Source: Octopus sinensis (lineage: Eukaryota). From it: a stretch of DNA of 64,000 nucleotides. Positions 12,219 through 40,420 of this stretch are shown here, one piece after another; the stretch's first letter is position 1, and each line of letters starts with the position of its first letter. The DNA is taken from assembly GCF_006345805.1 (NCBI RefSeq), contig NC_043001.1, positions 83,142,001-83,206,000 of the forward strand, read 5' to 3'. Below the pieces are notes generated by a model. The model searched no databases. It had not been told where the DNA came from and worked only from the letters and a program-made list of their open reading frames with translations. The translations under genes and the position numbers were made by a program.

Positions 12219-12220
<2 letters not shown>

Positions 12221-12485
12221 TATAATATAATACTTTAAAAAAGGTTTATTTAAATAACTACAGTACATATGTTTCCACAATAGATATTTATATAATAAAT
12301 CAGCAATTGAAATCTAAATAATGTTTAAAATGAGGAAAAATATAGGCTATATTTTTCTACATTTTACACATTCATTTAGACCGCAATTGCCGATGAAATG
12401 ATAGATATTATTATATAAATATCTATTATGGAAACATTTGTACTGCAGTTATTTAAATAAATCTTTTGAAATATTATATTATATT
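12219..12485. repeat. ~265-bp imperfect palindrome containing a decayed hammerhead motif
   Basis: Arms pair around GAAAAATATAG-G-CTATATTTTTC; right arm has CCGATGA...GAAACATTTGTA. Confidence 0.8.
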
Positions 12486-12834
12486 ACTCTATGGATTTTT
12501 TTATGATATGATCTGATTAACTAGGTAAGTAAAAAAATTTTTCTCAATAATTCATATGGTTTCCATATGGAGTTTCTAAGTTATGCTTAATTGTTCCTAC
12601 TCTAATAACATATTAACAATGAATATATATATATATATATCTGTATATAAATAAATAAATATATATATATATATATATAATAAATCTAAATATATATATG
12701 CATATATATATATATACATATATAATAAATCTGAATATATATATATGAATCTATCTATCTGCCTACCTACCTTCCTATCTACCTACCTACCTACCTACCT
12801 ACCTACCTACCTACCTACCTACCTACCTACCTAC

Positions 12835-12888
<54 letters not shown>

Positions 12889-13440
12889 CTCTATCGACCT
12901 GTATTTATTTATCTATTTACGAATTAAAAGCAGCGGTGTTGTAAGCATTTTCGATCGCATATACTCAATGTATGTGTTTTGCATTTTCGCCGGTTCACTG
13001 TGGGATAGGCCCTAGGAGACGACTCCCTGATAGCACTGAGTGTTAAAACACTGTAAAGTCACAGAGAGGTGAGACAACTCGCCCTCAATCCCATTCCGGA
13101 GCGATGGATACCGATATTTCACTATTATGTTTGTGGTTTAATAATCTTACGTACATGAATCAAACAGAAATGGAACAGAATTGCCAGTCTATGAATATAT
13201 ATAAATAGTGTAGAAACAATTTGTGAGTGCGCCACACTTGTAAGATTAAATTCAATTATGTATTCAAAGCAGCGCTAGTTTTATAAACATTATCGACCGC
13301 ACAAACTCAGTGCATGTGTTTTACTTGCATACACATAGACTTACACACATTTGTTACAACGCACATACATAGTTATATACCAATATACATACTTATACAT
13401 ACATACATTCACAAAAATCAACATAGGAGTCTATGAAAAA

Positions 13441-13856
13441 AGGCGGTGAGCTAGCAGAAAGATTAGCACGCCGGGCGAAATACTTAGCGTTATTTCGTCT
13501 GCCGCTATGTTCTGAGTTCAAATTCTGCCGAGGTCCACTTTGCTTTTCATCCTTTCGGGGTCGATAAATTAAGTACCAGTTACGCACTGGGGTCGATGTA
13601 ATCGACTTAATACCTATGTCTGTCCTTGTTTGTCCCCTCTGTGTTTGGCCCCTTGTGGGTAATAAAGAAATAGGTATTTCGTCTGCCGCTATGTTCTGAG
13701 TTCAAATTCCGCCGAGGTCCACTTTGCTTTTCATCCTTTCGGAGTCGATAAATTAAGTACCAGTTACGCACTAGGGTCGACATAATCGACTTAATCCTTT
13801 TGTCTGTCATTGTTTGTCCCCTCTGTGTGTAGCCCCTTGTGGGCAGTAAAGAAATA
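13441..13856 (+). mobile_element. SINE family B, head plus tandem second unit
   Basis: AGGCGGTGAGCTAGCAGAA..GAGTTCAAATTC (B-box)..TTTCATCCTTTCGGGGTCGATAAATTAAGTACC (resembles the Meta/MESC SINE domain); the body occurs twice. Confidence 0.9.
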
Positions 13857-14841
13857 TAATAAGAGTCTATGAAAAGACTGTTCCAATGAACTGCAGGTGC
13901 CGTCAATTTGAAGGCATTCTAAAAAATTTCTGTTTACCACATTTCAAACAATTTCTGTTTACTGTATTTCAAAAGATTTGATGCTATGATTAGGGACACC
14001 CGCACGAAATTTCACGAACAGAAATCGAAAATGGGACTTCGTGATTACAAAACGAACCTTATAAAAATTCATCCATGTTGTGTCTAAACAACTATCTCTA
14101 TTAATGTGAGTCGTAATTTCGTTAGGATAAATAAAACTATTTCAGTATGTTGACATGAGAGATGATTTTTGCAAACTTCAAAATTGAGGTAGGTGCTTGA
14201 AACATAATGGATAATATACCACAATGTCAGAAGTACTCGTTGTTTCTTTTATTATAAGGTTTATTTTCATTGTGTATACGTGTGCCAGTGTATATTTTTA
14301 CTGTGTATAGTGTATAAATGGTGAAGGTCTCCTCTCTCTCCTTCACCATTTTCTCTCTCTCTCTCTCTTTCTCTCTCCCTCGTTCTCTTTTGTCTCGTTG
14401 CTCACACGTGGCCATCGTCCAGATTTCTTTTCCTCACGTGACTATCTTTCTTTTCCTGCACGGACGTTTAAACGAACGGACGGGTTTTTCTTTCTCTCTT
14501 CTATCTTTTCTCTTTTCAAAAAATGTTTCTTCCAGCTTTCAATATTTCCCCCTCATTCTGGTCCAAAGACCCTCCATATTCGTTTTCATTCAGCTTCCTT
14601 GTGTGTCTCCACTGTCATATTTTTGTTCCCAACTTTGGCCCTCCAAAAATCCTAAAGATTTTTTAGAATTTATGGGAGCAACTGTCGAATGCTTGAAATG
14701 AGGACTAGATAGACAGCCGACAACTGATGAAGAATCGTTTCTCTGTGTTAACTTGTTCTGTTTTCCATTTTTCTCATCGTTTACGTATTTCATGTTAATT
14801 GCACCGTTGGTGACACCCTGCACTCATATATGCATATATAT

Positions 14842-14958
14842 CACGTCACGTGACCGACCAGACCAACAGATGTTGTTACACATCGCTGGTCACAATGCGT
14901 TCGCATTGTTTTAGCCTTCGAATGACGCCACCCCCCCGCTGGCTAAGCGAGCAGGCCA
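14842..14958 (-). mobile_element. 3' part of SINE family C
   Basis: Reverse complement of 59045-59134. Confidence 0.8.
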
Positions 14959-15096
14959 TATGCAATATATATATATATATATAATATATATATATATATA
15001 TCGATATAATATGGAATATTTTATTTATTTAATTGAATTGCAACGCGTCCATTTACAAGTATATATATATTATATATATATATATATATATATGTA

Positions 15097-15302
15097 GTGT
15101 CTGTGCTTGTCCACCCACAATCGCTTGACAACCAATGCTGGTGTGATTATATCCCCGTATCTTAGCGGTTCGGCAAAAGAGTCCGATAGAATAAGTACTA
15201 ATCTTACAAAGAATAAGTCCTGTGGTCGGTTTGTTCGACTACAAGGCGGTGCTCTAGCATGGCAGCAGTAAAATCAGTGAAACAAATAAAAGAATAAAAG
15301 AA
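15097..15302 (+). mobile_element. SINE family A, 3' half
   Basis: CGCTTGACAACC..CTTAGCGGTTCGGCAAAAG..AAAAGAATAAAAG. Confidence 0.85.
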
Positions 15303-15384
15303 CATATATATATATATATATATGTGTATTAGTGTGTATACATAGTATATATACATACATACAATCATACATACATACATACAT

Positions 15385-15419
<35 letters not shown>

Positions 15420-15425
15420 GTATAC

Positions 15426-15461
<36 letters not shown>

Positions 15462-15620
15462 ATAAAAATGGAACAAAACCGCAAAAGAGGAGAATAAAAC
15501 ATTCGGACAGATAGACGATACAAAGGCGGACAGGGGAAACAATTAGAAGAACAGGCATAACAAGACGGGTCATTCATGGCCTTCTTTCCTCAGTGAAGTA
15601 CCACAAGTCACGACAGTTTC

Positions 15621-15785
15621 GGAGTGGCTGTGTGGTAAGTAGCTTGCTAACCAGCCACATGGTTCCGGGTTCAGTCCCACTGCGTGGCATCTTGGGCAAG
15701 TGTCTTCTGCTATAGCCCCGGGCCGACCAATGCCTTGTGAGTGTATTTGGTAGACGGAAACTAAAAGAAGCCTGTCGTATATATG

Positions 15786-15824
<39 letters not shown>

Positions 15825-16040
15825 ATGTGTTTGTGTGTCTGTGTTTGTCCCCTCAACATGGCTTGACAACCGATGCTGGTGTGTTTACGTCCCCGTAACT
15901 TAGCGGTTCGGCAAAAGGGACCGATAGAATAAGTACTGGGCTTACAAAGATAAGTTCCGGCGTCGATTTGCTCGACTAAAGGCGGTGCTCCAGCATGGCC
16001 ACAGTCAAATGACTGAAACATGTAAAAGAGTAAAAGAGAG
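15621..16040 (+). mobile_element. SINE family A, near full length
   Basis: GGAGTGGCTGTGTGGTAAG...GGTTCAGTCCC...GTAAAAGAGTAAAAGAG. Confidence 0.92.
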
Positions 16041-16614
16041 ATATATGCGGAGAAAGCGCGCAATATCATATGTAAAAGCTTCACGTTGGTACTAAATTTA
16101 AGATTTAAAACCCTTGTAAATACGACGACGATTTAATATAAGAAGTTCACGAAAATTGCAGAAAACACATCTCCAAGCATATTCAGATTGCAGTTATAAT
16201 TGAACACTTGAAAATATAGTATTAAACATATTATAGGAATTAAAATGCAATTAAAGAAAACGCGTAAACAGAAACAAAAAATAAAATTAAAGAATACATT
16301 CTAATATAAATACATATGAAACCCTTGTTTAGTGAGACACTATAACAAGTTTATTTCGATTCGTTTATATTTTACTATAACTGCAGCACTGCTTTGTGCG
16401 TAAAATCAACGCCATTACTATATGTAGCTTTCGTTCTTCACTCTCATAAGTGCACCTTGCGTTTGAGTAATATATATTTATTTTAATATGCGTTTCGCAA
16501 TTTCTTTTCCTGTGTCTCCTTGTTTACGATAATTACGTTCTAATTTTTAGATTTTTTTTTTAAACGAAATTATCGATCTTTCTCTAAAACGAGACGAAGT
16601 GAATCATTATATGA

Positions 16615-16829
16615 TATATACAAACACACATACACGCACGCACACCCACACATACATATATGCATACTCACATACACATACACACATACAAATATACTCA
16701 CACACACACGCGCAGATACATATATAGGTGAATGTGTGTGCATGTAAATATAGACACTCATATTTATATATATGCGTATATATATATACACACACACACG
16801 CTATATATAGATAATATATATATATATAT

Positions 16830-16863
<34 letters not shown>

Positions 16864-16875
16864 ATAGATTTACAG

Positions 16876-16920
<45 letters not shown>

Positions 16921-17126
16921 ACTATATATATATACACACACAGAAACACTCACGTAAACAGCACACACATACATCTATACATACTCACACGCACACATAC
17001 ACACACATACATACACTCACACATAGATAAATACATACTCACACACACACGCACACAGACACGTGCAGACACACACACATAGGTGTATGCATGTAAATTC
17101 ACACACATGTATACACACACTCATAC

Positions 17127-17158
<32 letters not shown>

Positions 17159-17923
17159 ATATATACACACACACACACAGAGACACACACACATATAAAT
17201 GCATGTATACATACGCAGTAACACATCTACGTGCACATCTACGTGTATGTAAATATATACATACAAACAAGTGTTTTAAAGTACATATTAAATTTACATA
17301 TGTGTGCGTGAGACAGTGTATGTATGTGCGTACGTATGAATGTATGTATGTATGTATGTATGTGTATGTATGTATGTATGTATGTATGCATGCATTTACG
17401 TACTCATGTGTATGTGATGATATGAAGAATATTGTTGAAAATGGAAGAGCGATATATATATATATATATATATACATATATACATGCGCACGCGTGTGTA
17501 TATGCGTGTATGAATGCACATGGACATGTATATATATATATATACATATATAGGAATAAATGTAGATAATCTCCATAGACTTTAAATATGTGTTATGCAT
17601 GTATGCATGCATGTGTATCTGTATGTACAATAATTACGTTGTAATTTCTAGATTTTTTAACGAAATTATCGATTACATTCTTAATGAAACAAGGTGATGC
17701 TTTGTATGATACATACATATATACATGCACACATTAGTATATAATATACACACACACACATGTATATATATATATGTATATATATATATTATATATATAT
17801 ATATAATATTATATATATATATACATATGCATATATATATTATATATATTATACATATACATATATTATAATATATATATATACATATGCATAGATATAT
17901 ATAATATATATATATATATATTT

Positions 17924-17954
<31 letters not shown>

Positions 17955-18135
17955 TATATATATATACATATATGAATATATATATATATATAGATATATT
18001 ATATATAATATATTATATATATATATATCAGTATATATATGGTTGAACGCGTGTGCGTGTACTCACACATACATATGTACGCATGTATACATAAATATAA
18101 ATGTGTGTGTGTGTGTGTGTGCGTGTGCGTGTATG
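16615..18135. repeat. (CA)/(TA)/(GA)/(TATG) microsatellite field
   Basis: Direct reading. Confidence 0.92.
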
Positions 18136-18229
18136 AAATACGAAACAAATGTATTTTGTTTCGTAACATAGTAGATCTGCACCCATATTATCGTTAGGTT
18201 GATATACGTTGATAAATGCATGAAACTTT

Positions 18230-18845
18230 GGAGATAGTGGTAACGATGGCGAAGGTTATATTCGTTGTAATAGAGTTAGTATTGAGACGACAATGGGTAG
18301 AGAACGGGTTGATTGTAGGGTAAGAGTTAGAGTGGTAGTGGTTGTGCTGTTCGTTGTGGGTTTCGTTAGGATCTCAAAAGTAGGGGAATATAGTAGTAGT
18401 CATGGTGGTAGGGATGGTGGAATAGAGTTTGGGCGACCTTGGTGGTTGTATTGTTATTGATAGCGGCGGCAGTGGTGCTGGTGGTGGTTGTAGTAGTCGT
18501 GGTGGTAGTGGTGGTATTGTTGATGTTATTTTTGATGATTATGGTGACAGTGGTGTTGGTGGTGGTGGTGGTGGTTGTGGTTATCTGTGTGGTTAGATTT
18601 TATGTTGTCATGGCAGTGCAGTTGTTGTCGGTGAAGGTGGTGATGGCGGTGAAGGCGGTGACAGTGGCGGTGGTGGTGATGGGTCTGATGGTGGTAGGGG
18701 CAGTAGCGTCTTGATATAGTGATGATGTTGGTGACTTGAGAATGCTGGTGGTGATGGTGAAGGTATAGTTTTGCTGATGGCGTTTCGTATGATAGTGGCG
18801 AGATGTTGATGGTGATGACGCAGTGAGGTTCGTGATGACGAAGAA
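18230..18845. repeat. Degenerate (GGT/GAT)n tract
   Basis: Direct reading. Confidence 0.85.
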
Positions 18846-18979
18846 TACAACAGATTATTTGGGAGTAGATCTAATTTTACATAATTGGCTTCAGTTAGCT
18901 TGTAAATCTAAGCATGAAGCATGAGTATGTATTCGTGAATATATATCTATATACGTATGTGTATGAGTGTATATATATA

Positions 18980-19017
<38 letters not shown>

Positions 19018-19059
19018 TATATACATATGTATATATATACATATAGATATACATATATT

Positions 19060-19208
19060 ACAGCAGGGATCACCACCCCCTGCCGGAGCCTCGTGGAGCT
19101 TTTAGGTGTTTTCGCCCAATAAACACTCACAACGCCCGGTCTGGGAATCGAAACCGCAATCCTACGACCGCGAGTCCGCTGCCCTAACCACTAGGCCATT
19201 GCGCCTCC
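19060..19208 (-). mobile_element. SINE family C, 5' part (tRNA-derived head)
   Basis: Reverse complement: GGCGCAATGGCCTAGTGGTTAGGGCAGCGGACTCGCGGTC..GGTTTCGATTCCC. Confidence 0.88.
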
Positions 19209-19247
19209 ACACACACACACACATATATATATATATTATATATATAT

Positions 19248-19283
<36 letters not shown>

Positions 19284-19351
19284 TAATATATATATATATA
19301 TAATATATATATATATATATAATATATATATATATATGTATATATATATAA

Positions 19352-20925
19352 GGAAGCACCAGGCGGTAAGGGGGACAACAGTCTCCTTAGTATAATTTTT
19401 TTTAAATGGTCATATTTCTTTATTGAGGTGTGGTCTGTACTTTTGTATGAACAGGTTTTCCTTGTTTAGGTGTTCTTGTACGGAGATTGAATCTTTGCAT
19501 TGGTATAATGGGAAGATATGAAAATTCGGCGTTTTATTACTTGCGCATTTGTTGATATGTCCTCTCAGTGCTCTCTGCCTGTATTGAGGGAAACGAATCT
19601 GTTCTTTATGCAGCGTGATACTGCGTCTCAAAGTAAGGCTCGTTTGGCCCACATAACTATGACCACAACCTGTGCAGGTTAGGACATAGAGAAGGTTCTG
19701 GGAAGCACATGTGAAGTTGGTCTTAATTGAGAATTTTTGTCTTGCTGGAATGTGAATTCCGAGCGTCCAGTTAGGTATTGGCATGTACCACAATTAGGTC
19801 GTCTGCATTTTTTAACTGTTGGTATCGTTTGTATTGAGTATAGTTCTGTATTTGTTAGGAGTCTCTTGAGTAATTTGTCCTGTCTTTTGCATTTTAGTAC
19901 TTTGTGTGTATTTAGGATGCTGTTCATTTTCGGGTCTTGAGTGAGCCGAGGGGGATTTTGTTTAATTGTGTTGTATGCTTCAATGTTTCTGGGGTTGTGG
20001 GTTGATATGTATGGGAGTGATTTAAGGTGTGGTGTGGTTTCTTTTTGTTGTCCTTAGTGTGTTTGTGTCCAATTTTTGGCACGTTTAATTTCATGTTCTG
20101 TACGTGTAGGGGGTATTGACGTTCAATGAGTGTTATTTTGAGTTCTTGTATGCGAAGTTCCCAAGTGATTGTGTCAGATACAATTGTACAGATCCTTTTT
20201 GCTAGATTGAATGGGATATTTGGTGTGTTTAGGATGGCATGAACTGAAAAGGAGATACTGTTTTGAGTCTGTTGGTTTGTAGTAAATGTCAGTTGCAATT
20301 TGGTTGTTGGACTTTTTTAAAATCAAAATGTCCAGAAATGGGAGCAGTTCCTTGCTATATCCCATCGTAAATTGGATGTTGGGGTTTATATTATTCAGTG
20401 TGGATTTGAAATCCAGGAGTTTATCATATGTTTCATTCCAGATGATAAAACAATCGTCTAGGTACCTTTTTCTTTTTCTGTCAGGCCTTTTCCATGTTTG
20501 AGTATTAATGATGCAAGATCTTTTAAGATCTTCACAAAAGGAGTCATTTTCTAGTATGGACAATGCTAGGTTTTTATAGTATTCTGTGTCAATCCCTACT
20601 ACAGCACTACATTTGTCTGCTTCTTTGATTGTCAGGTCTTTGTCGTTTTTTAGCTGTGATAGGTGCTTCCATTGTATGTTGTTGAAGTTAGGTACAATTT
20701 TTGGTTTATAGATAGTGTGAGGAAAATTCTGGATACTGTTGCAGAAGTCATCTAGTGCTTTATTCTTTCCTTTGGGTGGTAGATAATTACTTTTCTTTCT
20801 CACTAGTGATTCGCCATCGTTGTTTTAGTTGGTTAGTGATTCTGTCAATCGAAGTATTCTATAGAATTCTACAATATTGTCTTTAATTTCATTGGCGTTG
20901 GGTCTACGTGTAGTGGGTGTAAATT
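19352..20925 (-). mobile_element. Penelope-like retroelement (RT + GIY-YIG endonuclease), decayed and internally deleted; Neptune-like
   Basis: IKEADK, RYLDDCFIIW, LPFLDILI, IYYKPT (ORF 20174-20803); Cys linker KCRRPNCGTC; NLLYVLTCTGCGHSYVGQT..H..KENLFIQKYRPHLN (ORF 19410-19793); flanked by (TA)n. Confidence 0.93.
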
Positions 20926-21082
20926 TATATATATATATATATGTATATGTATATATGTATGCATGTATATTTATATATATTATATATGCTGTTGCCGCAT
21001 TATGTCGTACGCGAATGAGAGGATTTGCATCCCCAACGTAGAATTTTTGTTGTAATACATGTCCTTGAGGTAGTAGTTGTGC

Positions 21083-21160
21083 GCGGCTGAAGAAGGCCAC
21101 AGACACACATTATGCATTGTTATAAATCCGTCTAATAAAGGCACGAAACATATGTACCGC
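21083..21160 (+). ncRNA. Minimal type I hammerhead ribozyme motif
   Basis: GCGG-CUGAAGA-AG-GCC..GGC-AC-GAAA-CAUAUG-UA-CCGC: stem I GCGG/CCGC, intact core, palindromic stem III. Confidence 0.8.
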
Positions 21161-21210
21161 TGAATCCTTGGCATCATGTTTTTATTTTTATTTTGATTAA
21201 TTTATGTATG

Positions 21211-21278
<68 letters not shown>

Positions 21279-21542
21279 GTATGTATAAAGGCATAAATAA
21301 AGGGCTTTATCTATTTATTTCTGCATTGTAGACTTGTAGCTGCTTCAAAGTGCATTGCGTTTATTGTTCTGTTTAATCAATTGATCGATTGATCTACTGA
21401 AAATATAATGAACGACAGTTAGGATGGTATCGTTGTCAGTGTCCAACACAACGGCTGCCAAATTACTTGGCTCTGATGACGGTACCATTATGTGTGTGTA
21501 GGGGGGGCTGAGTGTGTGTCTGCCGCACGCGCGTGTGTGTAT

Positions 21543-21665
21543 GGCGCTCCGTCGGTTGCGACGACGAGGGTCGCAGTTGATCCGAACAAAGGAACAGCCT
21601 ACTCGTGAAATTACCGAGCAAATGACTGAACGCTTCCACAGGCACGTGTACACTTAATGTTATGT
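21543..21665 (-). mobile_element. Shared SINE 3' tail module
   Basis: Matches 43815-43960 and the reverse complement of 55960-56040 (GGCTGTTCC..GATCAACTG..TCGTCGTCG..CCGACGGAG). Confidence 0.8.
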
Positions 21666-22094
21666 TGTCATCTGAGGTCAGTGTATCAGTGTAGTTTGTT
21701 TCTGTTTTGTATTTTGTCGCCTCCTTGTGTATAGAGAAATGCCTTTTCTTTTTCTCGTGTTGCTTTACTACATGCAGTAGGTAGTCTTCCACTCTTTGAT
21801 TCTAAGTACTTCTATAGTCCAACCGTTGTTATTTTACAGTAATTCTCTATCAATATCAGGCCACGGCCACCTTCTGAGCAGGGTAGATATATTCTGTCTA
21901 CGTATGCGTTGGGATGGTATACGCTGTTTAGTAGTTTTTTTGGTTTTTCTATCTAGGTTTCTCAATTCACTGATCTCCCAGTTTATTATGTTAAAGCTGT
22001 AATTTATGACTGGCATGGCTAGCGTGTTTTTCCCTGTTATCTTATTTTTAGCATTAAGTTCAGTGTTTAATATTAGTCTAACTCTTCTGTAATA

Positions 22095-22401
22095 GAGTGG
22101 TTGTATACTGTCAACATAATGTGACAGTCCGTATGGATTACACCACCGCTGTTTAGCCCAAGGAAGCATCGACGCTTCCTGTCGGCTTTGACACATTTCC
22201 TGTGTCCTTATATTTGTGAAGGGGAGGCAAGCACCCCCACCAGCCAAGATTCACAGCTGAGGACATGCATGTTTCTGGGTCTTAACCCGTCATCAGCCCA
22301 GGATACTGAGATTTGCTGACTGAGGTGTCCGTCTAGCCTTCACAAACATATATATCTACAGTGAAATCTATTCACTGGTCACCGTAATTAGAAATATTAA
22401 A
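22095..22401 (-). mobile_element. ~307-bp structured non-coding insertion carrying a hammerhead ribozyme
   Basis: Splits the LINE frame MKEKISRAYY/RRVRL; TAATA is repeated at both junctions (22090-22094, 22402-22406); multiple hairpins. Confidence 0.8.
22257..22301 (-). ncRNA. Minimal type I hammerhead ribozyme motif
   Basis: CUGGG-CUGAUGA-C-GGGU-UAAG-ACCC-A-GAAA-CAUGCAUG-UC-CUCAG; all core nucleotides present; predicted cut after GUC (22262/22261). Confidence 0.9.
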
Positions 22402-24299
22402 TAATAAGCTCTACTAATTTTCTCTTTCATTCCTGTATGTTGTATTTTAGCTGTTTCTTCTTTTTCTAGATATTTGTATGGGCGGTTATGGTCTGATTCT
22501 GTGTCTATATCGAGTGCAGTGTTTGCAGTGCTGAATAATTTGCCTCTTGTCAGTGAGACTGGCACAATTGTCCAGCCCCATGCTCATTCAGATGTCATTG
22601 CTGATACTCAACAATTTTGATAAAGTTTTTCTGTTCTATGGTACAAGAGATGGTTATTTTTGTCCGTAGCACCTACAACCCATGGTGGTTTCGTTTAGCA
22701 AGGTTGTTAGCGGGTCAGAGAAAGGCAGAAAAGAAGGGTTGACAGTAAGTCTCCCTGGAAAATCTCTCTTCTTATGGGGTATAGGATAGGTTTTAATAAC
22801 TTGTAGGTCATTTTTTAATACTATACTGGTTTCCGGTTTGCCATTGCATACTTAATATATTTTAGTAGTGGTGGAGGCTACCTTTATTGTGTAGAGAGAT
22901 TCCAGCATCCATGAATGTGGAACACTGTCGAATGCTTTCTGGTAATCAATCAAGTCATGTTCAGGTTTGTCTTTCTCCTCTTACAGGCCTCCATAATTGC
23001 TCGGTTTACCAGAAGTTGCTCTTTATAGCCACATTTCCCTTTCCAGCACCCTTTTTGTTCTTCTGGTATGACACTGCTATTTTCCAGGTGCTTTATAAGC
23101 CGGTTATTGATGGCTGATGTTAGAGTTTTGTAGGATGTCAATAGGCATGTAACTGGTCCGTAATTTTGTGGTAGTACGGTGTCTTTGTTTTTGGGAATCA
23201 GGGCGATCTGCCCTTCCAGCATCCACTTTGGTGTTGGTTCTTATCAACAAATTGAACATGGTTATGGGTACTAGTGAGGTGTTTAACCTGAAGTTGGGGA
23301 CCTTGTCTATCCCTGGAGTTTTCCAGTTGCTGGTACTCCTCAGTGTGTCCATGATCTCTTGACCTGTGATAGTGGGCCATATCTGTTGTTCTATTGCGTT
23401 CTTCTCTTTTTCCCTTCTATACCACTCAGCATTTTTGTTGTGCTTCTTTGATCTTCTCCTTATTGCTTCCCAGTATGACTGAATCACTGACGTAGGCATG
23501 GCATCTACCGATGTAGTTTTTTAAAAACTTTCTATAAAAACATTGTGTTTTTTTTAATTCTCTATTTTGTTGAAAGAAGCGTTCCCGTTTTTCATACCGT
23601 TTCATGCAGCAAGTTTTTACTGCTATGCCCTGTTAAATTTTTTCTTTTACATCACAAGTATCTTCTTTATTTTTATGTTGTATTGTTTTGTTACATGGGC
23701 CCTTTTTTACTTTTCATATTTGATCCCTTTTTCTCTAATTCACAAAGTAGCGAAAAGTCTTTCTTTTGTTTTTGAATTTTATTTATGATCTGTTTTCATT
23801 TTGTGGTTTGAGATTTGGCTGGGATTTTTTCCTTGTAAAGATCAAGTCTAGTTTCCCTGGATATCACTACAGCTGTTGAGTAGATCAAGTCATTTAGTTT
23901 GCTGCTATCTAGTGTATCTTTTGATATGGTCATTATTACTTGTAAGGCTCTGTTGTATATATCCTTTCTTAGAACTGTTTATTTTTTTGTAGCCTGCGGA
24001 GACGTTTACGCTGCTCCATATTTATCGACTGTGTGATGTCTAGTTCTTTTACTTCTGTTATTTCTTCACTAGGTTCGTCTCTGTCCTCGGTTATAACTCA
24101 TCTGCTTTGGTATGTGTTATTTTTGTTGTTGTTTTGCGCTTTAGTATTCGCTTGTGTATGTTGTTGATATGCTGTGCTAATCTATTTATTTCAGGGTTGG
24201 GTAGCTATACAGAGATTTTACTTTGGTTTAGCCGTTTATTTACTGTTTGCAGTGATATCTCTGTTGTGTTCTCTTCTTTCCTTTCTGGAGTTTTATGCG

Positions 24300-24460
24300 T
24301 TTTCGGAGATAATTCAGTTCTTGTCCAATCTACAAAAGCTGCTGAGTATCTGAGTAATAATACTGCCCTAGTATTTACAGCCTTCACTAGATTCAGACCA
24401 TTTAGCTTTGACTTCATTAGCCTCCTCAGTTTTCGTTTTCATTTCTATGTTTTTATCATT
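24300..24460 (-). pseudogene. Fragment of a second R4-clade RT
   Basis: MKSKLNGLNLVKAVNTRAVLLLRYSAAFVDWTRTEL covers the same domain as 21950-22090, so it comes from a different element. Confidence 0.75.
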
Positions 24461-24469
24461 GTATTTCTC

Positions 24470-24863
24470 CCGTCGCTACGTTTTGAGTTCGAGTTCCGCC
24501 AAGGTCGACTTCGCCTTTCACCCTTTCAGTATCGATAAATAAAGTACCAATGAAACACTAGGGTCGATGTAATCGACTATTCCCCCCCCCAAAAAAAATT
24601 CCAGGCCTTGTGCCTTTAATAGAAAGGATTACTGTTATCATTATTATTAAAGCGGCGAGCTGGCAGAATCGTTAGCGTGTTGGGTAAAATGCTTAGCGGC
24701 ATTTAGTTCGTCTTTTCGTTTTGAGACCCAATTCCTACGATGTCGACTTTGCCATTCATCATTTCGGGGTCGATAAAATAAGTACCAGTCGAGCACTAGG
24801 GATAACGTAATTTACTTACTCCCTTTCCTCGAACTAGCTGGCATTGTTCCAAAATTTGAAACC
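24470..24863 (+). mobile_element. Two SINE family B copies
   Basis: GTCGACTTCGCCTTTCACCCTTTC and GCGGCGAGCTGGCAGAATCGTTAGC..GTCGATAAAATAAGTACC. Confidence 0.85.
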
Positions 24864-24881
24864 AATATATAGATACATAAA

Positions 24882-25258
24882 TCTCTCTATATATAAACGG
24901 CAGTTTGTCTGTGTGCGTTTCTGTGTGTCTGTTAGGTTGTACCCTCACCCTGACCACGGCTTTCAACCGATTCTTAATGAAACTTAACACACACATAGCC
25001 CAATGTCATAATTCAAAACTAACGCAGAGAAAATTTTGAAAAGTTCCCCCAGTTCTGAAAAAAATCGATAAATTCGACATGGGGTCGAGAATCAGAAACA
25101 CAAACCACAGACTGTCTAGGGGACGCAACTCGACCGTTTTAACTCTCAAAAAAAAATTTACCATAATTTTTTTTCCATTTTTTTTGGCTATAACTCTCTA
25201 AAAATGCTTTATAGTTATTTCCCTTACAAACCCGAGCAACGCCGGGCGATACTGCTAG
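24882..25258 (+). mobile_element. Non-autonomous Helitron
   Basis: A|TC start (TCTCTCTATATATAAA), 3' hairpin CCCGAGCAACGCCGGG, terminal CTAG|T, no TSD. Confidence 0.85.
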
Positions 25259-25569
25259 TACGTATATAAACATGCGTATATATACACATGCAAAATAAGA
25301 GGGACTGTACGGATTTGATTATAACGGATGGAGCAGGTTTGATTATCGGACTATCAATTAGAGAGGGCTTCAGAATGGACACTCGGGGCTAAACTACAGC
25401 AACTACAAAGCAATGCATATGGGGTAGAGTGGTTTGGTGTGTATATTTAATGTAACATCACTGGATGTCCAAACTGGCAAAGAACGGACGAACACAGACC
25501 TCGGTGACCAGCAATAGAGAAAACTGTTGGAAAACGAAAGCAACGTTATCATTATCACACATTTGCTTT

Positions 25570-25890
25570 TCCTTCTCCTTCTCCTACTCCTCCTCCGCCT
25601 CCTCCTCCTCATCATCATCATCGTCATCATCGTCATCACGGTTATCAGCGTCATCATCGTGATCATCATCATCATCGTCATCATCATCATCATCGTCATC
25701 ACCATCGTCATCATCATCATCATCATCGTCATTATCCTCATCATCGTCATCATCGTCATCATCATCATCATCATCAAAACTACGACAACGACAGCAAATA
25801 TATTTGCTGCCATCGTCGTCTTCAACGTCTTTGTTCACCTCCTCTTCTTCATCTCCTCCTCCCCCTCATCATCATCATCGTCGTCGCCGT

Positions 25891-25922
<32 letters not shown>

Positions 25923-26129
25923 CCATCACCTTCATATTTGCTGTCGTCGTCGTCATCAACGTCTTTTTTCACCCCCTCCCCTTCATCTCCTCCTCTTCAT
26001 CATCATCGTTGTCGTTGTCATCGTCATAATCGTCATCGCCAACACCATCAACCTCATATTTGTTGTCGTTTTCATCGTCGTTGTCGACATCATCATCACC
26101 ATCATCACTACCACCACCACCACTACCAC

Positions 26130-27414: not shown

Positions 27415-27595
27415 TCACATGGACACGTAGCCACTACACACATTTTTTTTTCTGTGTTCTTTTCTGTGGCAGAGCGTAGGCTCGAAACGTAAAGGGACCT
27501 TTTCAATTCCGAGCGTTATATTAATACATCTGTTTGTTTCCTACACCACCTGTCTTCGTCTTTTGTTTTCTTTTTTTTTTCGTGAAATCTCTACA
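27415..27595 (+). mobile_element. Short PLE-terminus-like repeat with a variant hammerhead core
   Basis: CTGTGGCA-GAGC-GTAG-GCTC-GAAACGTA; inverted second copy at 30625-30815. Confidence 0.7.
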
Positions 27596-28690: not shown

Positions 28691-30026
28691 AAGGGACGAC
28701 ACCAGAAAAGGCAAATGTTATGTAATGTATTTCACTAGCTTACAGCTGTTTCTACTACGGAAAGTTCAGTCCCAAGTGCACTTCATATGTAAGGCTCTGA
28801 TCGTTAGATCTTGATTTCAATTCCCAGACCGGATGTTGCATTGACTTCTTGAGCAAAACACTTCATCTCACGTTGCTTTGTGAACACTTCGACACCTAAC
28901 GTGTGGCAAACCATGTTCCTGTTCAGACAACGTCGATTTGAGGGAGAAAGTGAGCACAAATATTTGATCACAATAAACAAACATTTGATCAATATAAATA
29001 AGTCCTTTGTGCAGGTCAATCGGCTAAACCTGATCACTCAAACGTCGTCTTTGACAGGAGAGTCCATTGTTATAATTCACAATAGCCATTTTTTGTGGTT
29101 TGATAGTATGACCCACACACCTTTCAATGAAACTATTTTATCGTGTTACAATTAAAAGGATCTTTACCATTACAAGAGGTTTACGTTTGCTGAACAATTT
29201 TAGTATGGTGACACTTTGTAGATTTTATTGCTCTCAGTATTTTACTGGTACTATATCATTTTATCAATCTTGGAATGATAAAATATAAAATCTACAACGG
29301 AAGTATTTGAACTGAGAATTTAAAAGAACCCTACTAAAACAGCAAGTCATTTTGTCTGTTGTTCTACGTATTCTGCCTGTCCATCCCTCGGAGAAGCAAG
29401 AATATTGGTAAGGTAAGGAGAACATTATAGCATTCTGAATAAAAATGCTTTTAGCTGGATGGAGTTGCAATTCCATTTTAATTATTTGTTTTAGCAGGAT
29501 AAGTTTGCAGTGCTTTAAACTGGGATTAATATTTTTAAACAGAACACATCTTTAAGAAATTTTATGCCAGAGGAATACCGCAGCAAGCTGCTTGTCAACG
29601 ATGCATATACATTAAGTATAAACATAGTATGCATAGTGCAAACACACACACACACACACACACACACCACACACACAACGCACACATACAAACACACACA
29701 GACATGTATTTATGTATGTCATTATTCAGTTTATTTCAATATTTCTTGCCAATAGAGAAAGAACCGGTTTCTAAACTAGACCCAAGGCTCCTTCATTGGA
29801 ATTTCAACGTCAACAACAGGGTATTTTTATATGTATGTATATATGTATGTTTGCATGTGTGTATGTTTTATGTGCATATATTCCCGTGCATATATTTGCA
29901 TACCTAGACATGCTCATATACATATCTAAATGATATTCATATATGCATATATATACAGAGAAAAATCCAATGGGTAAAGTTCCATTTCTTTCATATATAT
30001 ATATATATATATAATATATATATATA

Positions 30027-30624: not shown

Positions 30625-30815
30625 GTATAGGGAGAGTTTATGAAAAAAACAAAAGACGAAGACAGGTGGTGTACAAAACAAACAGATGTATTAGTATAAC
30701 ACTCAGGAATAGAAAAAGTTTTTATGTTTCGAGCCTACGCTCTTCTACTGAAAGGGACACAGAGAAAACAAGGAGAGAAAAAAATGTGTGTAGTGGCTAA
30801 CGAACTATCATGGCG
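30625..30815 (-). mobile_element. Second copy of the 27415-27595 repeat
   Basis: Reverse complement: CAGTAGAAGAGCGTAGGCTCGAAACATA..TAATACATCTGTTTG..CACCACCTGTCTTCGTC. Confidence 0.75.
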
Positions 30816-33024: not shown

Positions 33025-33055
<31 letters not shown>

Positions 33056-33182
33056 TACTACGAGCGCCATTACCACCACCACCATCGCAATCACTGTCAC
33101 CATCATCACTACTACTACTATTATTATTACCAAAACCACTACACCCACCATCACCACCACCGCCACCACCACCACCACCACC

Positions 33183-33228
<46 letters not shown>

Positions 33229-34180: not shown

Positions 34181-35049
34181 TCACAACGTCCACCTTCAAC
34201 ACTGTCCTTTTCTCTAGACACAGCAAGATAAAAAACAAAAACAAAAAACCCTTCCACTACAAAAGAATGCATTTATGAATAAGAGATCCTTTAATGTATC
34301 TAACAGGTCTGTCTCCGGGGATGGTTCTATTGACACTAAAGGAGGTTTCATCCGTTTTTGGAACGTTTGATGAATGAGTCTCGTCAGATGGAGACTTGAA
34401 AGTTTCTTGTATTTTAGTATTATTAATTTTCTTTTGTTTGTTTGTCCATTTATGATATTCGTGTCGCCACATCTCTGCTATACTCACCTGAGAGATGGAC
34501 GCCGTTTCAAGGGCACATCAATATTCTCGAAAATTCCCTTTCAAGAGAGGTGTTTAAAGATGTACATTTAACACCAGTTAAAAATCATTTACACCTGACG
34601 TAGAAATCAGAAGTGCTGTGCTGGAAAGAGTGGACTATCTTAATATAGGAGGTCGCCTTATCAAGTAGGATTAGAGGACCAGTTCATCGCTTAACAGGTA
34701 CGATAAACGATGAGTGGGCCAGCCCATCCGCCTTAAGGATTTCAGGTTTCCAAAGCCAGGATTTTACAGTAAATTAGTTCTTGGTAAGATTCCGCAACAT
34801 AGTGCAGAGAAGAAATTTCATGACATCACGCGCGCGCATACACACATGCTCGCGCACAAACACAATCAGAAACATACACAGTTATAGGTTTCAAATTTTG
34901 GCACAGGTTCAGCAATTTCGGGGAAGAAACTACGTTGATTACATCAACCTCAGTGAACGACTGGTACTTATTTTATCGACTCCGTAAGGAGTTTTGCATC
35001 AGGAAATAATCTTTTTAAAGACCTATAATGTTAAGACCTATAATATTTA

Positions 35050-35657
35050 CAAATCGCATATTTTCAGCTACTCTAATAGATTCTTCAGATTTAAATTGTG
35101 TGAAGGGATTTGTCTCTTTTTATAGTATAAGTGAATGGGTTGGGGTGTAGAGAGAGAGAAGGGGGGGAAGAAGAGTAATGTGGAGTGTAAAGCGTAGGAA
35201 AAGAGGGAGAGGAATGGAGAGATAGTGGAGGGAGAAAGTGAAAGAGAATGTGTGTGTGTGTGTGCGTGCGTGCGTACGTGTGTGTATGTGTGTGTGCCTG
35301 TGTATCTGAAAGGAACTGTTTTGAACAGGAGGTAAAGAAAAAGAAGATTTTTAAGTAGGTGGCTTGAACAGATGCTTTTGGTTCAATCAGCTCACCACGG
35401 GGTCTGAAAGAAAAATGTCTTCAAAGTGAAAAACTGTTTTTTTTCTTTATGTCAATGGAAAACAGAAGGAAAGAAAGGAAGGAAGAAAGAAAGAAGAAAA
35501 AATGTATTTATATCTATGCAGTTGGTCAGTTCTGTCAATAGAAGATAACAAGTTGATTCTTGGTCTGTGAAAATGGCAAGACCAGGTGGTTACTCTAAGG
35601 GGGATTTGTTTTGATGAGGAATAATGAAATATATTTTTCAAAAAATTGTCTGGACTT

Positions 35658-35727
<70 letters not shown>

Positions 35728-37310
35728 CCAGCATCATCATCATCACCAGCATCATCATCATTGTCCAATGTTTGATTCCCATGCCGGTATGGGTTGGAAA
35801 ATCTGGATGCAAGAATGTCTCTATGTATATACATACATACACACATGCATATATCTTATGGTTCCAGAATTTTGCTATGAAGTGTTGTTCCATATTTTTT
35901 CTGAAGAAGGCGTCTGTAGTTTTCTACCCAGTGTTTTATCGCCTCCAGACCCAGGGTGTGTGGTATGTACGTGTATAAGTTTGTCACATCGAAGCTTGCA
36001 AGTATGGTGTTTTCTGGAACCGTACTTGGAATGTGTGTGAGAAAGTCTGTCATCCCTTATGTAGCTTGGTATCAGTGGGCATAAAGGTTTGAGGAGTACA
36101 TCTATGAAGTGGCTTAGTTGTGTTGGTGCTTGGGGTCCTGCCACTATTGGTCTCATTGTGAGGTATGTGGGCCTTTGTATTCTTATATAATGGCTGCTCT
36201 ATTCTTTTATGGCTCTCTGTATTTCAGAGCTTTTATGAATTTTAGGCAGTCTACAAAAATTGCTTTCTTTGGTTCTTGAGTTGCATAGATAGGCTTTCTC
36301 CTTGTCTGTAAAAGAATCCTGGTATTCATTGACTAATGTTCCGAAATTTTTAATGTTGCTTTCTCCGGTTGTGTTGATTCCTCTTTATAGTATGTCTGGT
36401 TGTTAAGAATATCTAGTATATTTTCTTTCTAGTAATCTGTATCCATAATCACTATTGCTCCACGTTTGTCAGCTTCTTTTAAGACGTTCGACTTGTCATT
36501 TTTTAAAGTTTTTGTAAAGCTTGTTTTTCTCCTCTGTGGAGGTTCTCTTTGCATTTATGTGTGTTGAGAGGGAATTTGGAGATTGTCTCTATGTATGTGT
36601 CTAGGTGTCTGTCAAATCTCCTTGTAAGGGGTGAATTGGGATTTTTGTCTTATGATTGAGTGATCTTCTGTTCCCTTATTTTCAAAGAATTCCATAAAGC
36701 AGAGGCGGCGGCTTAAGTTATATATATCAGTTTTTAGTTCTATGAGATTTTGAGTGGGTGTGGATGTAAATTTGAGGCCTTTTAGTAGTAGGTTCAGCTC
36801 ATTTTCGCTAAGTTCTCATTTAGATAGGTTTATTATTTTGGAGTCTGTGTGTTCATTCGGAATTTTTGGTATGTTGGATCTGGAGTATGGTTGCAGTATC
36901 CTTTCCCTAAAAAGTGGTTGTGTTGTTGCGTCTCCAACTTCCATTTTCAGGTTTTTAAAAATATTCTTTCTTTATCTCCTGTTCAAAACACTTCCTTTCA
37001 GATACACAGGCACACACACACACACACACACAGACACACACACACACACACCACACACACACATACCCACACACACACACGCACGCACACACACACACAC
37101 TCACACTCAAACACACACATTCATTCTCACTTTCTCCGTCCACTATCTCTCCATTTCTCTCCCTCTTTTCCTACCCTTTACACTCCACATTACCCTTCTT
37201 TTCCCCCTCTCTCTCTCCACCCCAACCCATTCACTAATACTATAAAAAGAGACAAATCCTTTCACACAATTGAAATCTGAAGAATCTATTAGAGTAAATT
37301 AGAATATTTG
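35050..37310 (-). mobile_element. Penelope-like element remnant (N-terminus and RT start) bounded by ~300-bp inverted pseudo-LTRs
   Basis: LLLKGLKFTSTP, KEADK, RPIVAGPQAPT, YIRD..DFL, LASFDVTNLYTYIPHTLGLEAI (35856-36850); 35060-35355 is the reverse complement of 36960-37297. Confidence 0.88.
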
Positions 37311-37344
37311 ATTTTTAAACACTCACACACACACCACACACACA

Positions 37345-37387
<43 letters not shown>

Positions 37388-37388
<1 letters not shown>

Positions 37389-37739
37389 GCGCAGGAGTGG
37401 CTGTGTTTGTAAGTAGCTTGTTTACCAACCACATGGTTCCGGGTCCAGTCTCATTGCGTGGCCCTTGGGCAAGTGTCTTCTACTATAGCCTCGAACCGAC
37501 CAAAGCCTTTGAGTGGATTTGGTGGACGGAAGCTCAATTAAGCCCGTCGTGTATATAATATTTATGTCTGTATTTTTTCTGCCTGTATTTGTCCCACCTG
37601 TCGAACTTTAGCAGTTAGGGAATAGAGTCCGATAGAATAAATACTAGGCTTACAAATAATAAGTCTTGGGGTAGATTTGATTGACTAAAGGCTGTGCTCC
37701 AGCATGGTTGCAGTCAAATGACTGAAATGTGAAAAAGAA
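37388..37739 (+). mobile_element. SINE family A
   Basis: AGGCGCAGGAGTGGCTGTG... head and 3' tail. Confidence 0.88.
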
Positions 37740-37892
37740 TTATATATATATATATATGTAATACGTATATATACATATATACTTATATATACATATATAT
37801 GTATATATATGTATATATGTATATGTATATATATAATATATATATAGATAATATATATATATATAGTTTAAAACTTGCAAAGAAGGTTTTGA

Positions 37893-37946
37893 AACCACCT
37901 GAAGAATGTCTCATAGAAGTGCTGACACGAAACGATTGTAGTGGTT
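37893..37946 (+). ncRNA. Minimal type I hammerhead ribozyme motif
   Basis: AACCAC-CUGAAGA-A-UGUC-13nt-GACA-C-GAAA-CGAUUG-UA-GUGGUU. Confidence 0.82.
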
Positions 37947-37998
37947 ATTTTAATTAAATTTAATTTATATAAATTATTTTATGTATTGGCTTTAAGTC

Positions 37999-38098
37999 NN
38001 NNNNNNNNNNNNNNNNNNNNNNNNNNNNNNNNNNNNNNNNNNNNNNNNNNNNNNNNNNNNNNNNNNNNNNNNNNNNNNNNNNNNNNNNNNNNNNNNNN
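37999..38098. other. Assembly gap (100 N)
   Basis: Run of N. Confidence 1.
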
Positions 38099-38286
38099 CT
38101 GTGTGGTAAGAAGCTTACTCTTAACCACACGGTTCCTGGTTCAGTCCTACTGTGTGGCAGTTTGGGGCAAGTGTCTTTACGATAGTCTTGGGCCGACCAA
38201 AGCCCTGTGAGAGGATTCGTAGACGGAAATTGAAAAGAAGCTCGTCGTGTACATATACATATATATATATTATATATATATATAAT

Positions 38287-38338
<52 letters not shown>

Positions 38339-38506
38339 TGGCTTATATGAAGCTTAGTATTTATTCTATCGGTCTCTTTTGCCGAATCGCTAAGTTGCGG
38401 GGACGTAAACACACCAGCATCGGTTGTCAAGGGATGTTAGAGGGACAAACGCAGACCACACAACACACACACACACACACAAACACACATATATATATAT
38501 ATACAT

Positions 38507-38602
<96 letters not shown>

Positions 38603-39020
38603 GATATATATATATATAATATATATTTATATTGTTTGTTTGTACTCTACCTGCCTTCGTCTTTGTTAATTTCGTAAGCTTCCCGTTATATATATATATA
38701 TATATATATACACATACACACACATATATGTGTGTGCCTGCATTGTGTATGTGTGTGCCTGCATTGTGTATGTGTGTGCCTGCATTGTGTATGTGTGTGT
38801 CTGCATTGTGTATGTGTGTGTGTGTGTGTTTCCCAGCACCTTTTGACAATCGATGCTCATGTGTTTACATTCACGTAACTTAGCGGTTCGGCAAAAGAGA
38901 ATAAGTACCAGGCTTTAAAACAATTAAGCATTATTGTCAATTCATTCGATTGAAATTCATGAGAGATGTGCCCCAGCATGGCCGCAATCTAATGCCTGAA
39001 AACAACAAACGGTAAAAGTG
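38099..39020. mobile_element. SINE A fragments in mixed orientation, microsatellites and a 21-bp x4 minisatellite
   Basis: 5' half + (38099-38250), 3' part - (38352-38460), 3' part + (38830-39020); TGTGTGTGCCTGCATTGTGTA x4 at 38729-38812. Confidence 0.8.
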
Positions 39021-39104
39021 ATATTTCATACAGGGAGTATTTTGGCCTTTATCTAGAAAGAATTATGCTTTCTGGAAAAGAAAGCAACAGAGAATTTAGA
39101 AAAT

Positions 39105-39310
39105 TGTGTGGTAAGTAGCTTGTTTACCAGCGACATGGTTTCGGGTTCAGTCCCACTGTGTGGTACCTCGGGCAAGTGTCTTCTACTATAGCCTCGGGCC
39201 GACCAAAGCCTTGTGAGTTGATTTGATAGACGAAAACTTAACGAAGCCTGTCGTATATATGTGTATATATATATATATATATATAAAAAAAATATATATA
39301 TGTATGCGTA

Positions 39311-39347
<37 letters not shown>

Positions 39348-39592
39348 CTAATATATATATATATATATATGTATGTAGTGTGTGTATATGCTTGCGTGTC
39401 TGTGTGTTTGTTCCCCAACATTGCTTGACAAGCAATACTGGTGTGTTTACATACCCGTAACATAGCGGTTCAGCAAAAGACCGATAGAATAAGTACTAGG
39501 CTTACAAAGAATAAGTGCTGGGGTCTATTTGCTCGACTAAAGGCGGTGCTCCAGCATGGCCACAGTCAAATGACTGAAACAAGTAAAAGAGT
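39105..39592 (+). mobile_element. SINE family A
   Basis: Consensus match with an expanded internal (TA)n. Confidence 0.9.
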
Positions 39593-39809
39593 GAAGTTCA
39601 ATTGCACGTTAATAGATCGCATGGTCATACGTTCGAATCTTATAGTTATTGAATCATAAAGTTGCTTTTCGAAAGTACATATTGTATATAGAGGGAGGAG
39701 CATCGCACCGATAACTAACTGGTGGATAATCTGCCTGGGGTTAAAATAATAGTAACGTGGAACAGCCACTTTGACGTGGCAAATTATTTTATTTGTTAGT
39801 ATAGTTACT

Positions 39810-40024
39810 ACTCTCTTTTCTCTTTTACTTGTTTCAGTCATTTGATGCTGGAGCACCGCCTTTATTCGAGCAAATCGACCCCAGGACTTATTTTTGGAAG
39901 CCTAGTACTTATTCTATCGGTCTCTTTTGCCGAACCGCTATGTTACGGTGACGTAAACACACCAGCATCGGTTGTCAAGCGATGTTGGGGGGGGGGGGGA
40001 AACACCACACACACACACACAAAC

Positions 40025-40072
<48 letters not shown>

Positions 40073-40248
40073 CATACATATATACATATATACGACGGGC
40101 TTCTTTCAGTTTCCGTCTACCAAATCCACTCACAAGGCTTTGGTCGACCCGAGGCTATAGTAGAAGACACTTGCCTAAGGTATCACGCAGTGGGAATGAA
40201 CCCAGAACCATGTGGTTGGTAAGCAAGCTACTTGCCATACAGCCACTC
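39810..40248 (-). mobile_element. SINE family A
   Basis: Consensus match. Confidence 0.9.
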
Positions 40249-40371
40249 TCATTTCTTGAGATTCTACGACTAGTTATTTTGCTTGTTGCGAATCAGTGGC
40301 AAATGGTCCCTTTGTTTACATTACATTGATGGCGGGAGCGAACCCGGGCTATCGCTCTGGCGGCCAGGTAC

Positions 40372-40420
40372 TCATGACTGAAGATGAGCCAAGCAGCTCG
40401 AAACTGAGTCAGTTTTGCGA
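40372..40420 (+). ncRNA. Hammerhead-like motif at the tip of a long hairpin (40331-40459)
   Basis: UCAUGA-CUGAAGA-U-GAGC-CAAGCA-GCUC-GAAA-CUGAGUCAG-UU-UUGCGA; stem I is imperfect. Confidence 0.68.

Follow-up and report, generated by a model that had tools for sequence, protein, structure and literature searches.

The 64,000-nt window analysed here (Octopus sinensis, contig NC_043001.1, positions 83,142,001 to 83,206,000; the whole stretch is meant by the window) contains about 13 recognisable hammerhead ribozyme loci, four of them complete and about nine decayed. The analysis supports their being real hammerheads of a known kind, the minimal type with a palindromic stem III that is associated with Penelope-like elements (PLEs), as a first-pass annotation of this DNA had proposed; the four complete loci bear it out. 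They are probably, for the most part, decayed 3' end pieces (pseudo-long terminal repeats, pLTRs) of several PLE families, together with non-coding derivatives, each family having inherited its own palindrome. The solo motifs too are presumably of PLE origin, and cleavage of the window motifs, where it is spoken of below, is predicted. The window has a GC content of 37%, about one fifth of it is tandem repeat, and dispersed repeats are abundant.

The motifs, named by the position of their core, were searched for with a strict descriptor requiring an exact CUGANGA, GAAA and UH, stems I and II of at least 3 bp each and a near-palindromic stem III. Four loci (cores +21087, -22296, +37899 and +40378) were found. 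Block-wise dinucleotide shuffling (200 shuffles) yielded 0.10 loci on average and never more than 1, and the reversed window yielded 0. Since the thresholds of this descriptor were fixed only after a first look at the motifs, a second enrichment test was carried out without stem rules: a near-perfect palindrome of at least 8 nt stood behind 5 of the 11 pairs of core and GAAA, whereas the shuffles gave 0.49 and reached 5 in 0 of 200 cases. The relaxed tiers, with one or two core mismatches, remained within the shuffle range (7 vs. 3.7, maximum 9, and 14 vs. 7.1, maximum 15, respectively); for this reason, decayed motifs were counted only when a second copy or their context stood behind them. 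The motif density therefore exceeds that of shuffled sequence in the strict tier but not in the relaxed ones. GAA followed by an 8-nt palindrome, taken alone, was at chance level (5 seen vs. 2.8 ± 1.6 in shuffles). Rfam covariance models gave no hammerhead among the matches listed for the window (150 of 208), nor among the 7 for 20985-22400. They likewise miss the pLTR motifs of two relatives of the local PLE (L015 and L017, see below), which indicates that these models miss this hammerhead subtype.

The 21087 motif (21083-21160, plus strand) is a complete type-I minimal hammerhead with a GCGG/CCGC stem I, an irregular stem II region of 51 nt, the palindrome ACAUAUGU (ACATATGT at 21148-21155, present also at 12265-12272 on the minus strand) and a predicted cut after A21156. 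Also complete is the 22296 motif (22256-22302, minus strand), which has a 5-bp stem I, a C.A apposition at the base of stem II, the palindrome ACAUGCAUGU (ACATGCATGT at 22263-22272) and a predicted cut after C22262. The third complete motif, 37899 (37893-37946, plus strand), shows a 6-bp stem I, A.C at the base of stem II and the palindrome ACGAUUGU (ACGATTGT at 37932-37939), with a predicted cut after A37940; it is a solo fragment, preceded by a (TA)n tract and followed by an assembly gap. The 40378 motif (40372-40420, plus strand) has a complete core, a weak stem I (3 contiguous pairs), an extra U before the G-C pair and the odd palindrome ACUGAGUCAGU (ACTGAGTCAGT at 40403-40413), from which a 4-bp hairpin is possible. 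Its helix I is prolonged by a long rod (40330-40460, plus strand, z = -4.70). The motif sits at the tip of this 130-nt rod, its weak stem I arm resembles CpG decay, and no second copy was seen in the window.

All core nucleotides (CUGANGA, GAAA and U16-H17) are present at these four loci and at a fifth, 7652 (7612-7658, minus strand), a full-core motif of the C...A type with the palindrome AUGCAUGCGU and mismatched stems; the core is incomplete at 27464, 30750, 12390, 12303, 47583 and 28742. Stems I and II pair round the core at the four strict loci. The stem III palindrome is perfect at 21087, 22296 and 27464, and carries one change or a central base at 37899, 40378 and 7652. A G10.1-C11.1 pair follows an unpaired base 9.1 at 40378, 27464 and 30750, while this region is irregular at 21087 and 7652. 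The first-pass annotation had described C-A or A-C appositions, or an extra base, at the base of stem II, and these are indeed found: C.A at 22296, C...A at 7652, A.C at 37899, and an extra base before G-C at 40378 and 27464. Its seven stem III palindromes are likewise all present at or within one base of the positions given, the one placed at 37931 being at 37932. Its count of at least seven motifs is correct if decayed loci are included, but only four motifs are complete and five have a full core and GAAA; among the seven that it named, those at 27487 and 12265 are decayed and that at 28742 is coreless. Missing from its list were the pairs 7652/8146 and 35088/37277 and the weak motif at 47583.

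The PLE context is provided by two remnants on the minus strand. Remnant 1 (19419-20926) encodes a broken reverse transcriptase (RT) in which the YLDD motif can be read; a CX4CX2C linker is also present, as is a GIY-YIG domain whose match (E = 2.8e-4) is just under the Pfam cut-off. The remnant has an internal deletion and frameshifts, and (TA)n tracts on both sides. Its protein has 183 longer homologues, many of which measure some 750 aa and combine RT and GIY-YIG domains (PF00078, PF26215 and PF01541). The named matches include Octopus sinensis (64% identity), O. bimaculoides and other molluscs, in keeping with an octopus host, as are the microsatellites and short interspersed elements (SINEs) of the window. 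Some 160 bp upstream of remnant 1, beyond a (TA)n tract, is the 21087 motif in antisense orientation; it shares no sequence with the surviving 3' end of the remnant, and may be tied to it by position only. Remnant 2 (35880-36870) is the N-terminal part of a related RT. It is followed on its 3' side by a repeat (35046-35354, minus strand) that contains a decayed hammerhead core at 35088, in sense behind the frame, and an inverted copy of this repeat lies on its 5' side (36955-37318, plus strand) with a decayed core at 37277, antisense before the frame. The two arms are about 85% alike, and inverted repeats flanking the frame are a layout described for PLEs (PMC8557442). A CX4CX2C linker is reported there for the Neptune/Nematis type, to which the linker of the two frames in the window points as well, judging by sequence.

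In all three relatives that were compared, the matched frame is followed downstream by a CUGANGA...GAAA motif of the same orientation. L015 (palindrome AACGUU) and L017 (AUAU, in both direct repeats) have full minimal hammerheads, and L016 has the core with a less clear stem III. These three contigs are filed in bacterial genome bins, yet contain Penelope-like elements and hammerheads; they are most likely animal DNA contamination, and several protein matches labelled Candidatus Thiodiazotropha seem to be of the same kind. Viral contigs gave no match to the PLE protein or to two motif patterns. The PLE reading of the window is thus based on the remnants, on the core-bearing inverted repeats of remnant 2, on the motif downstream of the frame in 3 of 3 relatives, on the strict count (4 vs. 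0.10) and palindrome count (5/11 vs. 0.49), and on the opposite-strand arrangement of all four same-family pairs.

These pairs are 7652/8146, 12303/12390, 27464/30750 and 35088/37277. Because all four are inverted, a transcript through the window would never contain both members of a pair in sense orientation, and none of the pairs is a tandem dimer. The partner of 7652 is a deleted motif at 8146 (8128-8180, plus strand), and the alignment of the two scores 113, as compared to at most 64 in 100 shuffles. Upstream of its stem I, the 8146 motif has ATCTCAGTATCC (8128-8145, plus strand), which is found also ahead of stem I in the 22296 motif (22301-22312, minus strand); the two also agree in C17, in the C that follows the core and in palindromes built of repeated CATG. 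ATCTCAGTATCC is possibly a conserved loop-1 element. The second pair forms a 229-bp inverted structure (12239-12467) with a poor stem I in both arms. The +12390 arm has the core CCGAUGA, a 12-bp stem II and the palindrome ACAUUUGU, whereas in the -12303 arm, to which the ACAUAUGU at 12265 belongs, a deletion of 13 nt spans core and stem II, and a good stem I is lacking.

The 27464 motif (27458-27497, plus strand) has the core CUGUGGC (2 core changes), stem II GAGC/GCUC and ACGU (ACGT at 27487); its sister copy at -30750 (30717-30756, minus strand), with core CAGUAGA and ACAU, gave 2 matches as compared to 0.00 expected. Both copies (27464-27470, plus strand, and 30744-30750, minus strand) are CUGUNGA-like, with U in place of the A that hammerheads show at core position 6, and a third copy, consisting of the 3' part only, is found at 38622-38722. 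This U may be a family-wide core variant, or the family may be dead; no mention of an 'A6U' core variant was found in the hammerhead literature checked. The 18-nt stem II/GAAA word of this family occurs at 14 metagenome loci, all GC-rich and without flanking core or stems, and these matches were discarded as chance. A probable, weak decayed motif is that at 47583 (47577-47618, plus strand; CAGAAGA, ACAU), whose stem II does not fold.

Several candidates were rejected. The site at 28742-28749 (minus strand, ACAGCTGT/ACAGCUGU) is not a hammerhead as it stands, having no CUGANGA, stem I or stem II, and GAA-plus-palindrome sites at 2139, 3322, 16015, 29771, 41426 and 53268 are without cores. Exact CUGANGA cores at -1132, -34387 and -62175, followed by ACGU-like ends but with damaged stems, are possible older relics and were left uncounted. 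Two self-inverted elements, at 59365-59613 (about 250 bp) and 2265-2431 (about 170 bp), are either similar to miniature inverted-repeat transposable elements or inverted end pieces, and the scans saw no hammerhead core in them. A weak zf-RVT match at 49722-50033 (plus strand, E = 3.5e-4) is probably another fragment of a long interspersed nuclear element (LINE). Rfam microRNA matches in the window are microsatellites, and no tRNA genes were found in it.

The 22296 motif is contained in a non-coding, multi-copy insertion of 312 bp (22090-22402, minus strand) that interrupts the RT frame of a LINE. This broken RT (21660-24450, minus strand), presumably Dong/R4-like, is itself multi-copy in the compared runs. 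The insertion was surveyed in 4 of 24 listed runs, all of them contigs, aligned to 21950-22550 at 80% likeness. Other LINE copies run straight from 22089 to 22402, and 5 letters at this junction can be assigned to either side, which indicates a target duplication of about 5 bp. None of 100 shuffles folds as well as the insert (z = -3.84), whose motif forms the end of a long helix-I rod (z = -2.28) similar to that of 40378. The summed contig depth in runs X1 and X2 was 8,000-26,000 over the motif, with single contigs at about 40, and up to 530,000 (X1) and 860,000 (X2) over the 3' part; although these sums are not a copy number, they mark the element as a multi-copy family. Of the 40 variants listed (there are 103 more), four fall inside the motif. 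One, at 22256, accounts for about 97% of depth and adds a sixth stem I pair; the other three, at 22258, 22259 and 22270, come for the most part from a single X22 contig, and the 22270 variant, which alters the palindrome, has a depth of 0/11554 in X1 and 0/25982 in X2. The palindrome looks conserved among close copies, and C.A is likely the family state, since no variant listed contradicts it.

In run X16, from another organism, the motif bins are uncovered, and the alignment of 30 contigs breaks off at 22241, their loose ends having a median length of 14 letters and an agreement of 0.79. Their minus-strand consensus, GAAA CAUG UC followed by a different stem I arm, gives the palindrome ACAUGU, with one CAUG fewer. 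These relatives therefore appear to carry a palindrome shorter by one CATG, which should be taken as a lead and not as a count. The element is also covered by contigs of X22, guessed to be an RNA run, but element and LINE stand there in much the same depth ratio as in the DNA runs, and the coverage was not counted towards expression.

Where an active parent element forms partial tandem copies, a single transcript would contain the same hammerhead twice. As judged from published work, the two would be held together by their stem III palindromes, would swap stem I strands and would cut after U16-H17. Each family would inherit its palindrome, drift being allowed as long as self-complementarity is kept, for instance by gain or loss of a CATG unit, possibly through slippage. 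Like-with-like pairing would then be a by-product of palindrome and stem I rather than a unique barcode. The window copies, being solo or inverted, would form no dimers in cis, and the two motifs with palindromes of 10-11 nt in helix-I rods would be more likely to fold as monomers if transcribed. The topology of a double type-I hammerhead implies that the palindromes pair and that every stem I combines the 5' arm from one copy with the partner's 3' arm; because the stem I strands are swapped, stem I sets the specificity of the dimer as well.

The pairing energies of the six best motifs, which exclude 12390, 30750 and 47583 (palindromes broken in the latter two), were computed with a helix energy count that ignores junctions, tertiary contacts and kinetics. 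Homodimers range from -12.7 to -28.9 kcal/mol, as compared to -6.8 for the best cross-family pair. Stem III gives -1.7 to -13.3 kcal/mol in self pairs and +0.1 or worse between families, with the exception of 21087 with 22296 (-1.9); pairing of ACAUGU with ACAUGCAUGU is poor (+1.1). In four of the six motifs, stem I contributes more than stem III to the dimer energy. The long palindromes (10-11 nt) may also close monomer hairpins, of 4 bp and -0.5 kcal/mol at 40378 and of 3 bp and +1.7 kcal/mol at 22296. The earlier inference that cleavage would occur like-with-like is consistent with these energies, which favour homodimers, but its restriction to tandem transcripts is too strong, because monomer hairpins of 3-4 bp are possible. 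The loops are themselves self-complementary (UGCA, AUAU), and since a plain hairpin needs no self-complementary loop, the ability to dimerise is likely kept.

The first-pass annotation had gone further and read the palindrome as a family-specific dimerisation code. As a selected code barring cross-cleavage between co-resident families, we consider this quite unlikely; it is unproven and partly contradicted. In its favour, no two of the six best motifs have the same palindrome, stem III pairs better within than between families apart from 21087 with 22296, the listed 22270 palindrome variant is at zero depth in X1 and X2, and the short ACAUGU form pairs badly with ACAUGCAUGU. This orthogonality, however, is what any unrelated self-complementary words give, and needs no selection, and conservation within a family follows from descent and from the need to stay palindromic. 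Moreover, ACTTTAAGT is common to 5 of 14 Hydra families and ACGU to several families per species, ACAUAUGU occurs twice in the window (21148 and 12265) in unrelated flanks, and stem I outweighs stem III in most of the six motifs, so the palindrome alone is not supported as the code. One RNA-type contig has a changed palindrome (22270), 103 variants lie beyond the 40 listed, and insertion of an anole PLE in vitro was independent of hammerhead cleavage (PMC11167929). The differing palindromes are likely inherited family traits: published families share them, and the X16 loose ends appear to keep the 3' tail, after which come ACAUGU and a different stem I. The possibility that the matches arose by chance in low-complexity DNA holds for 28742 and possibly for 47583, and it is in line with the relaxed tiers and with the observation that most isolated motifs fold, as monomers, no better than shuffles. 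Given the strict and palindrome counts, the repeated family copies and the PLE context, it is extremely improbable for the set as a whole and is refuted for the four strict loci.

A partial alternative, compatible with an origin from PLE end pieces, is that the 22090-22402 element, perhaps with the 40378 rod, is a monomer of about 350 nt of a non-LTR retrozyme, cut as a monomer, circularised and mobilised by PLE enzymes. We regard this as possible, though with less than even odds, and a retrozyme-like or pLTR-derived nature would suit the insertion. Its length, non-coding character, target duplication, strong fold and high summed depth agree with this, as do a head-to-tail joint in X2 (22345 back to 22094) and the TCTCA shared by the loose ends past both termini, through which the unit would close at about 350 bp, a length also found in mussel retrozymes. 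On the other hand, depth varies strongly over the unit, in the manner of 5'-truncated retrocopies, and a summed depth counts no copies; only one tandem joint is found among the rows listed, and the loose ends agree at 0.5-0.7. Published retrozymes have canonical hammerheads in tandem arrays, whereas no array of the unit is present in the window and no loop 1-loop 2 contact was identified in it; among the contigs, the only material surveyed, no circular RNA was seen. Doubtful is also the bolder combination of an undescribed, very abundant retrozyme-like family of about 350 nt in which palindrome and stem I form a selected two-part code, gain or loss of whole CATG units along with changes in stem I leaving sister subfamilies incapable of dimerising with one another. 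The derivation from PLE end pieces, which we prefer, has weaknesses of its own. The only pair tied by sequence to a PLE frame, 35088/37277, is also the most decayed, the link of 21087 to remnant 1 is positional, and no PLE frame is attached to 37899, 40378, 22296, 7652, 27464 or 12390. Families were sampled for the 22296 element only, and only some of the X16 loose ends reach the palindrome. Favoured homodimers are predicted by the code idea as well, and Rfam recognises no motif of the window among the matches listed, though it misses those of L015 and L017 too.

As it stands, the window represents one more genome rich in PLE-type hammerheads, a known pattern: a large genomic census, which the first reading had suggested, is plausible, and family-varying palindromes, long palindromes and the C...A apposition are already in published tables. 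The most novel lead is the strongly folded 312-bp multi-copy insertion around 22296, and the core-position-6 U of the 27464 family is another. The weight of these observations would be greater if the insertion were a cephalopod retrozyme or if partner specificity were under selection. As palindromes that occur naturally within one lineage, ACAUGU and ACAUGCAUGU lend themselves to a test of whether the dimer partner is chosen by palindrome, by stem I or by both, which bears on what PLE hammerheads are for. Neither an octopus or cephalopod retrozyme nor a family-specific or heterodimer code was found in the literature by title and abstract, in a search outside which most subscription journals lay.

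Metazoan non-LTR retrozymes are non-coding, self-paired units of 170-400 nt with one type-I hammerhead, occurring also as dispersed, PLE-pLTR-derived monomers, in mussel too (PMC7229834; bioRxiv 10.64898/2026.07.22.740005). According to the same sources, coral and mussel retrozyme hammerheads cleave from single copies, and invertebrate ones with just 2 bp and a tetraloop cut as monomers. The 22090-22402 element is similar in being non-coding, strongly folded, 312 bp long and provided with one type-I hammerhead; it differs in being one dispersed copy with C.A and a 10-nt palindrome. Perreault 2011 reports palindromic stems III and variants at A6 and at 10.1-11.1, and reviews describe small PLE-associated variants with a short palindromic stem III and dimer cleavage (PMC6765202, PMC6466107). 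Cleavage by the anole PLE hammerhead depended on the protein of the element, and insertion in vitro did not require the hammerhead (PMC11167929). In our own count from File S2 of PMC8557442, ACTTTAAGT is present in 5 of 14 Hydra magnipapillata families whose stem I arms differ. That paper also lists an Octopus bimaculoides family with the palindrome acca-a-tggt, a C...A apposition in PLE-X1_cBra and an insertion bias for (TA)n. Like the PLE hammerheads of the Hydra and Chlamys clades described there, the window motifs have 8-10-nt and odd palindromes varying by family; none equals that of Hydra-1_oBim, and the two PLE frames of the window have a CX4CX2C linker.

Among the closest published counterparts are the metazoan PLE pLTR hammerheads of PMC4209133. 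They have a palindromic stem III and an extra base, number thousands per genome in many families, and form pairs on opposite strands 100-700 bp apart. Most families there have palindromes of the size of ACGU (both Xenopus, both Ixodes and 2 of 4 Schistosoma mansoni entries have ACGU itself), whereas several window motifs have 8-11 nt and two lie in long helix-I rods; octopus was not found in the supplementary alignment, as far as this was available. In other respects the window motifs resemble them closely, namely in the type-I topology, CUGANGA-N, the short stem I, the extra base at 9/10.1, the palindromic positions 15.2-16.2 with loop 3, the many families per genome, the mostly solo copies and the opposite-strand pairs.

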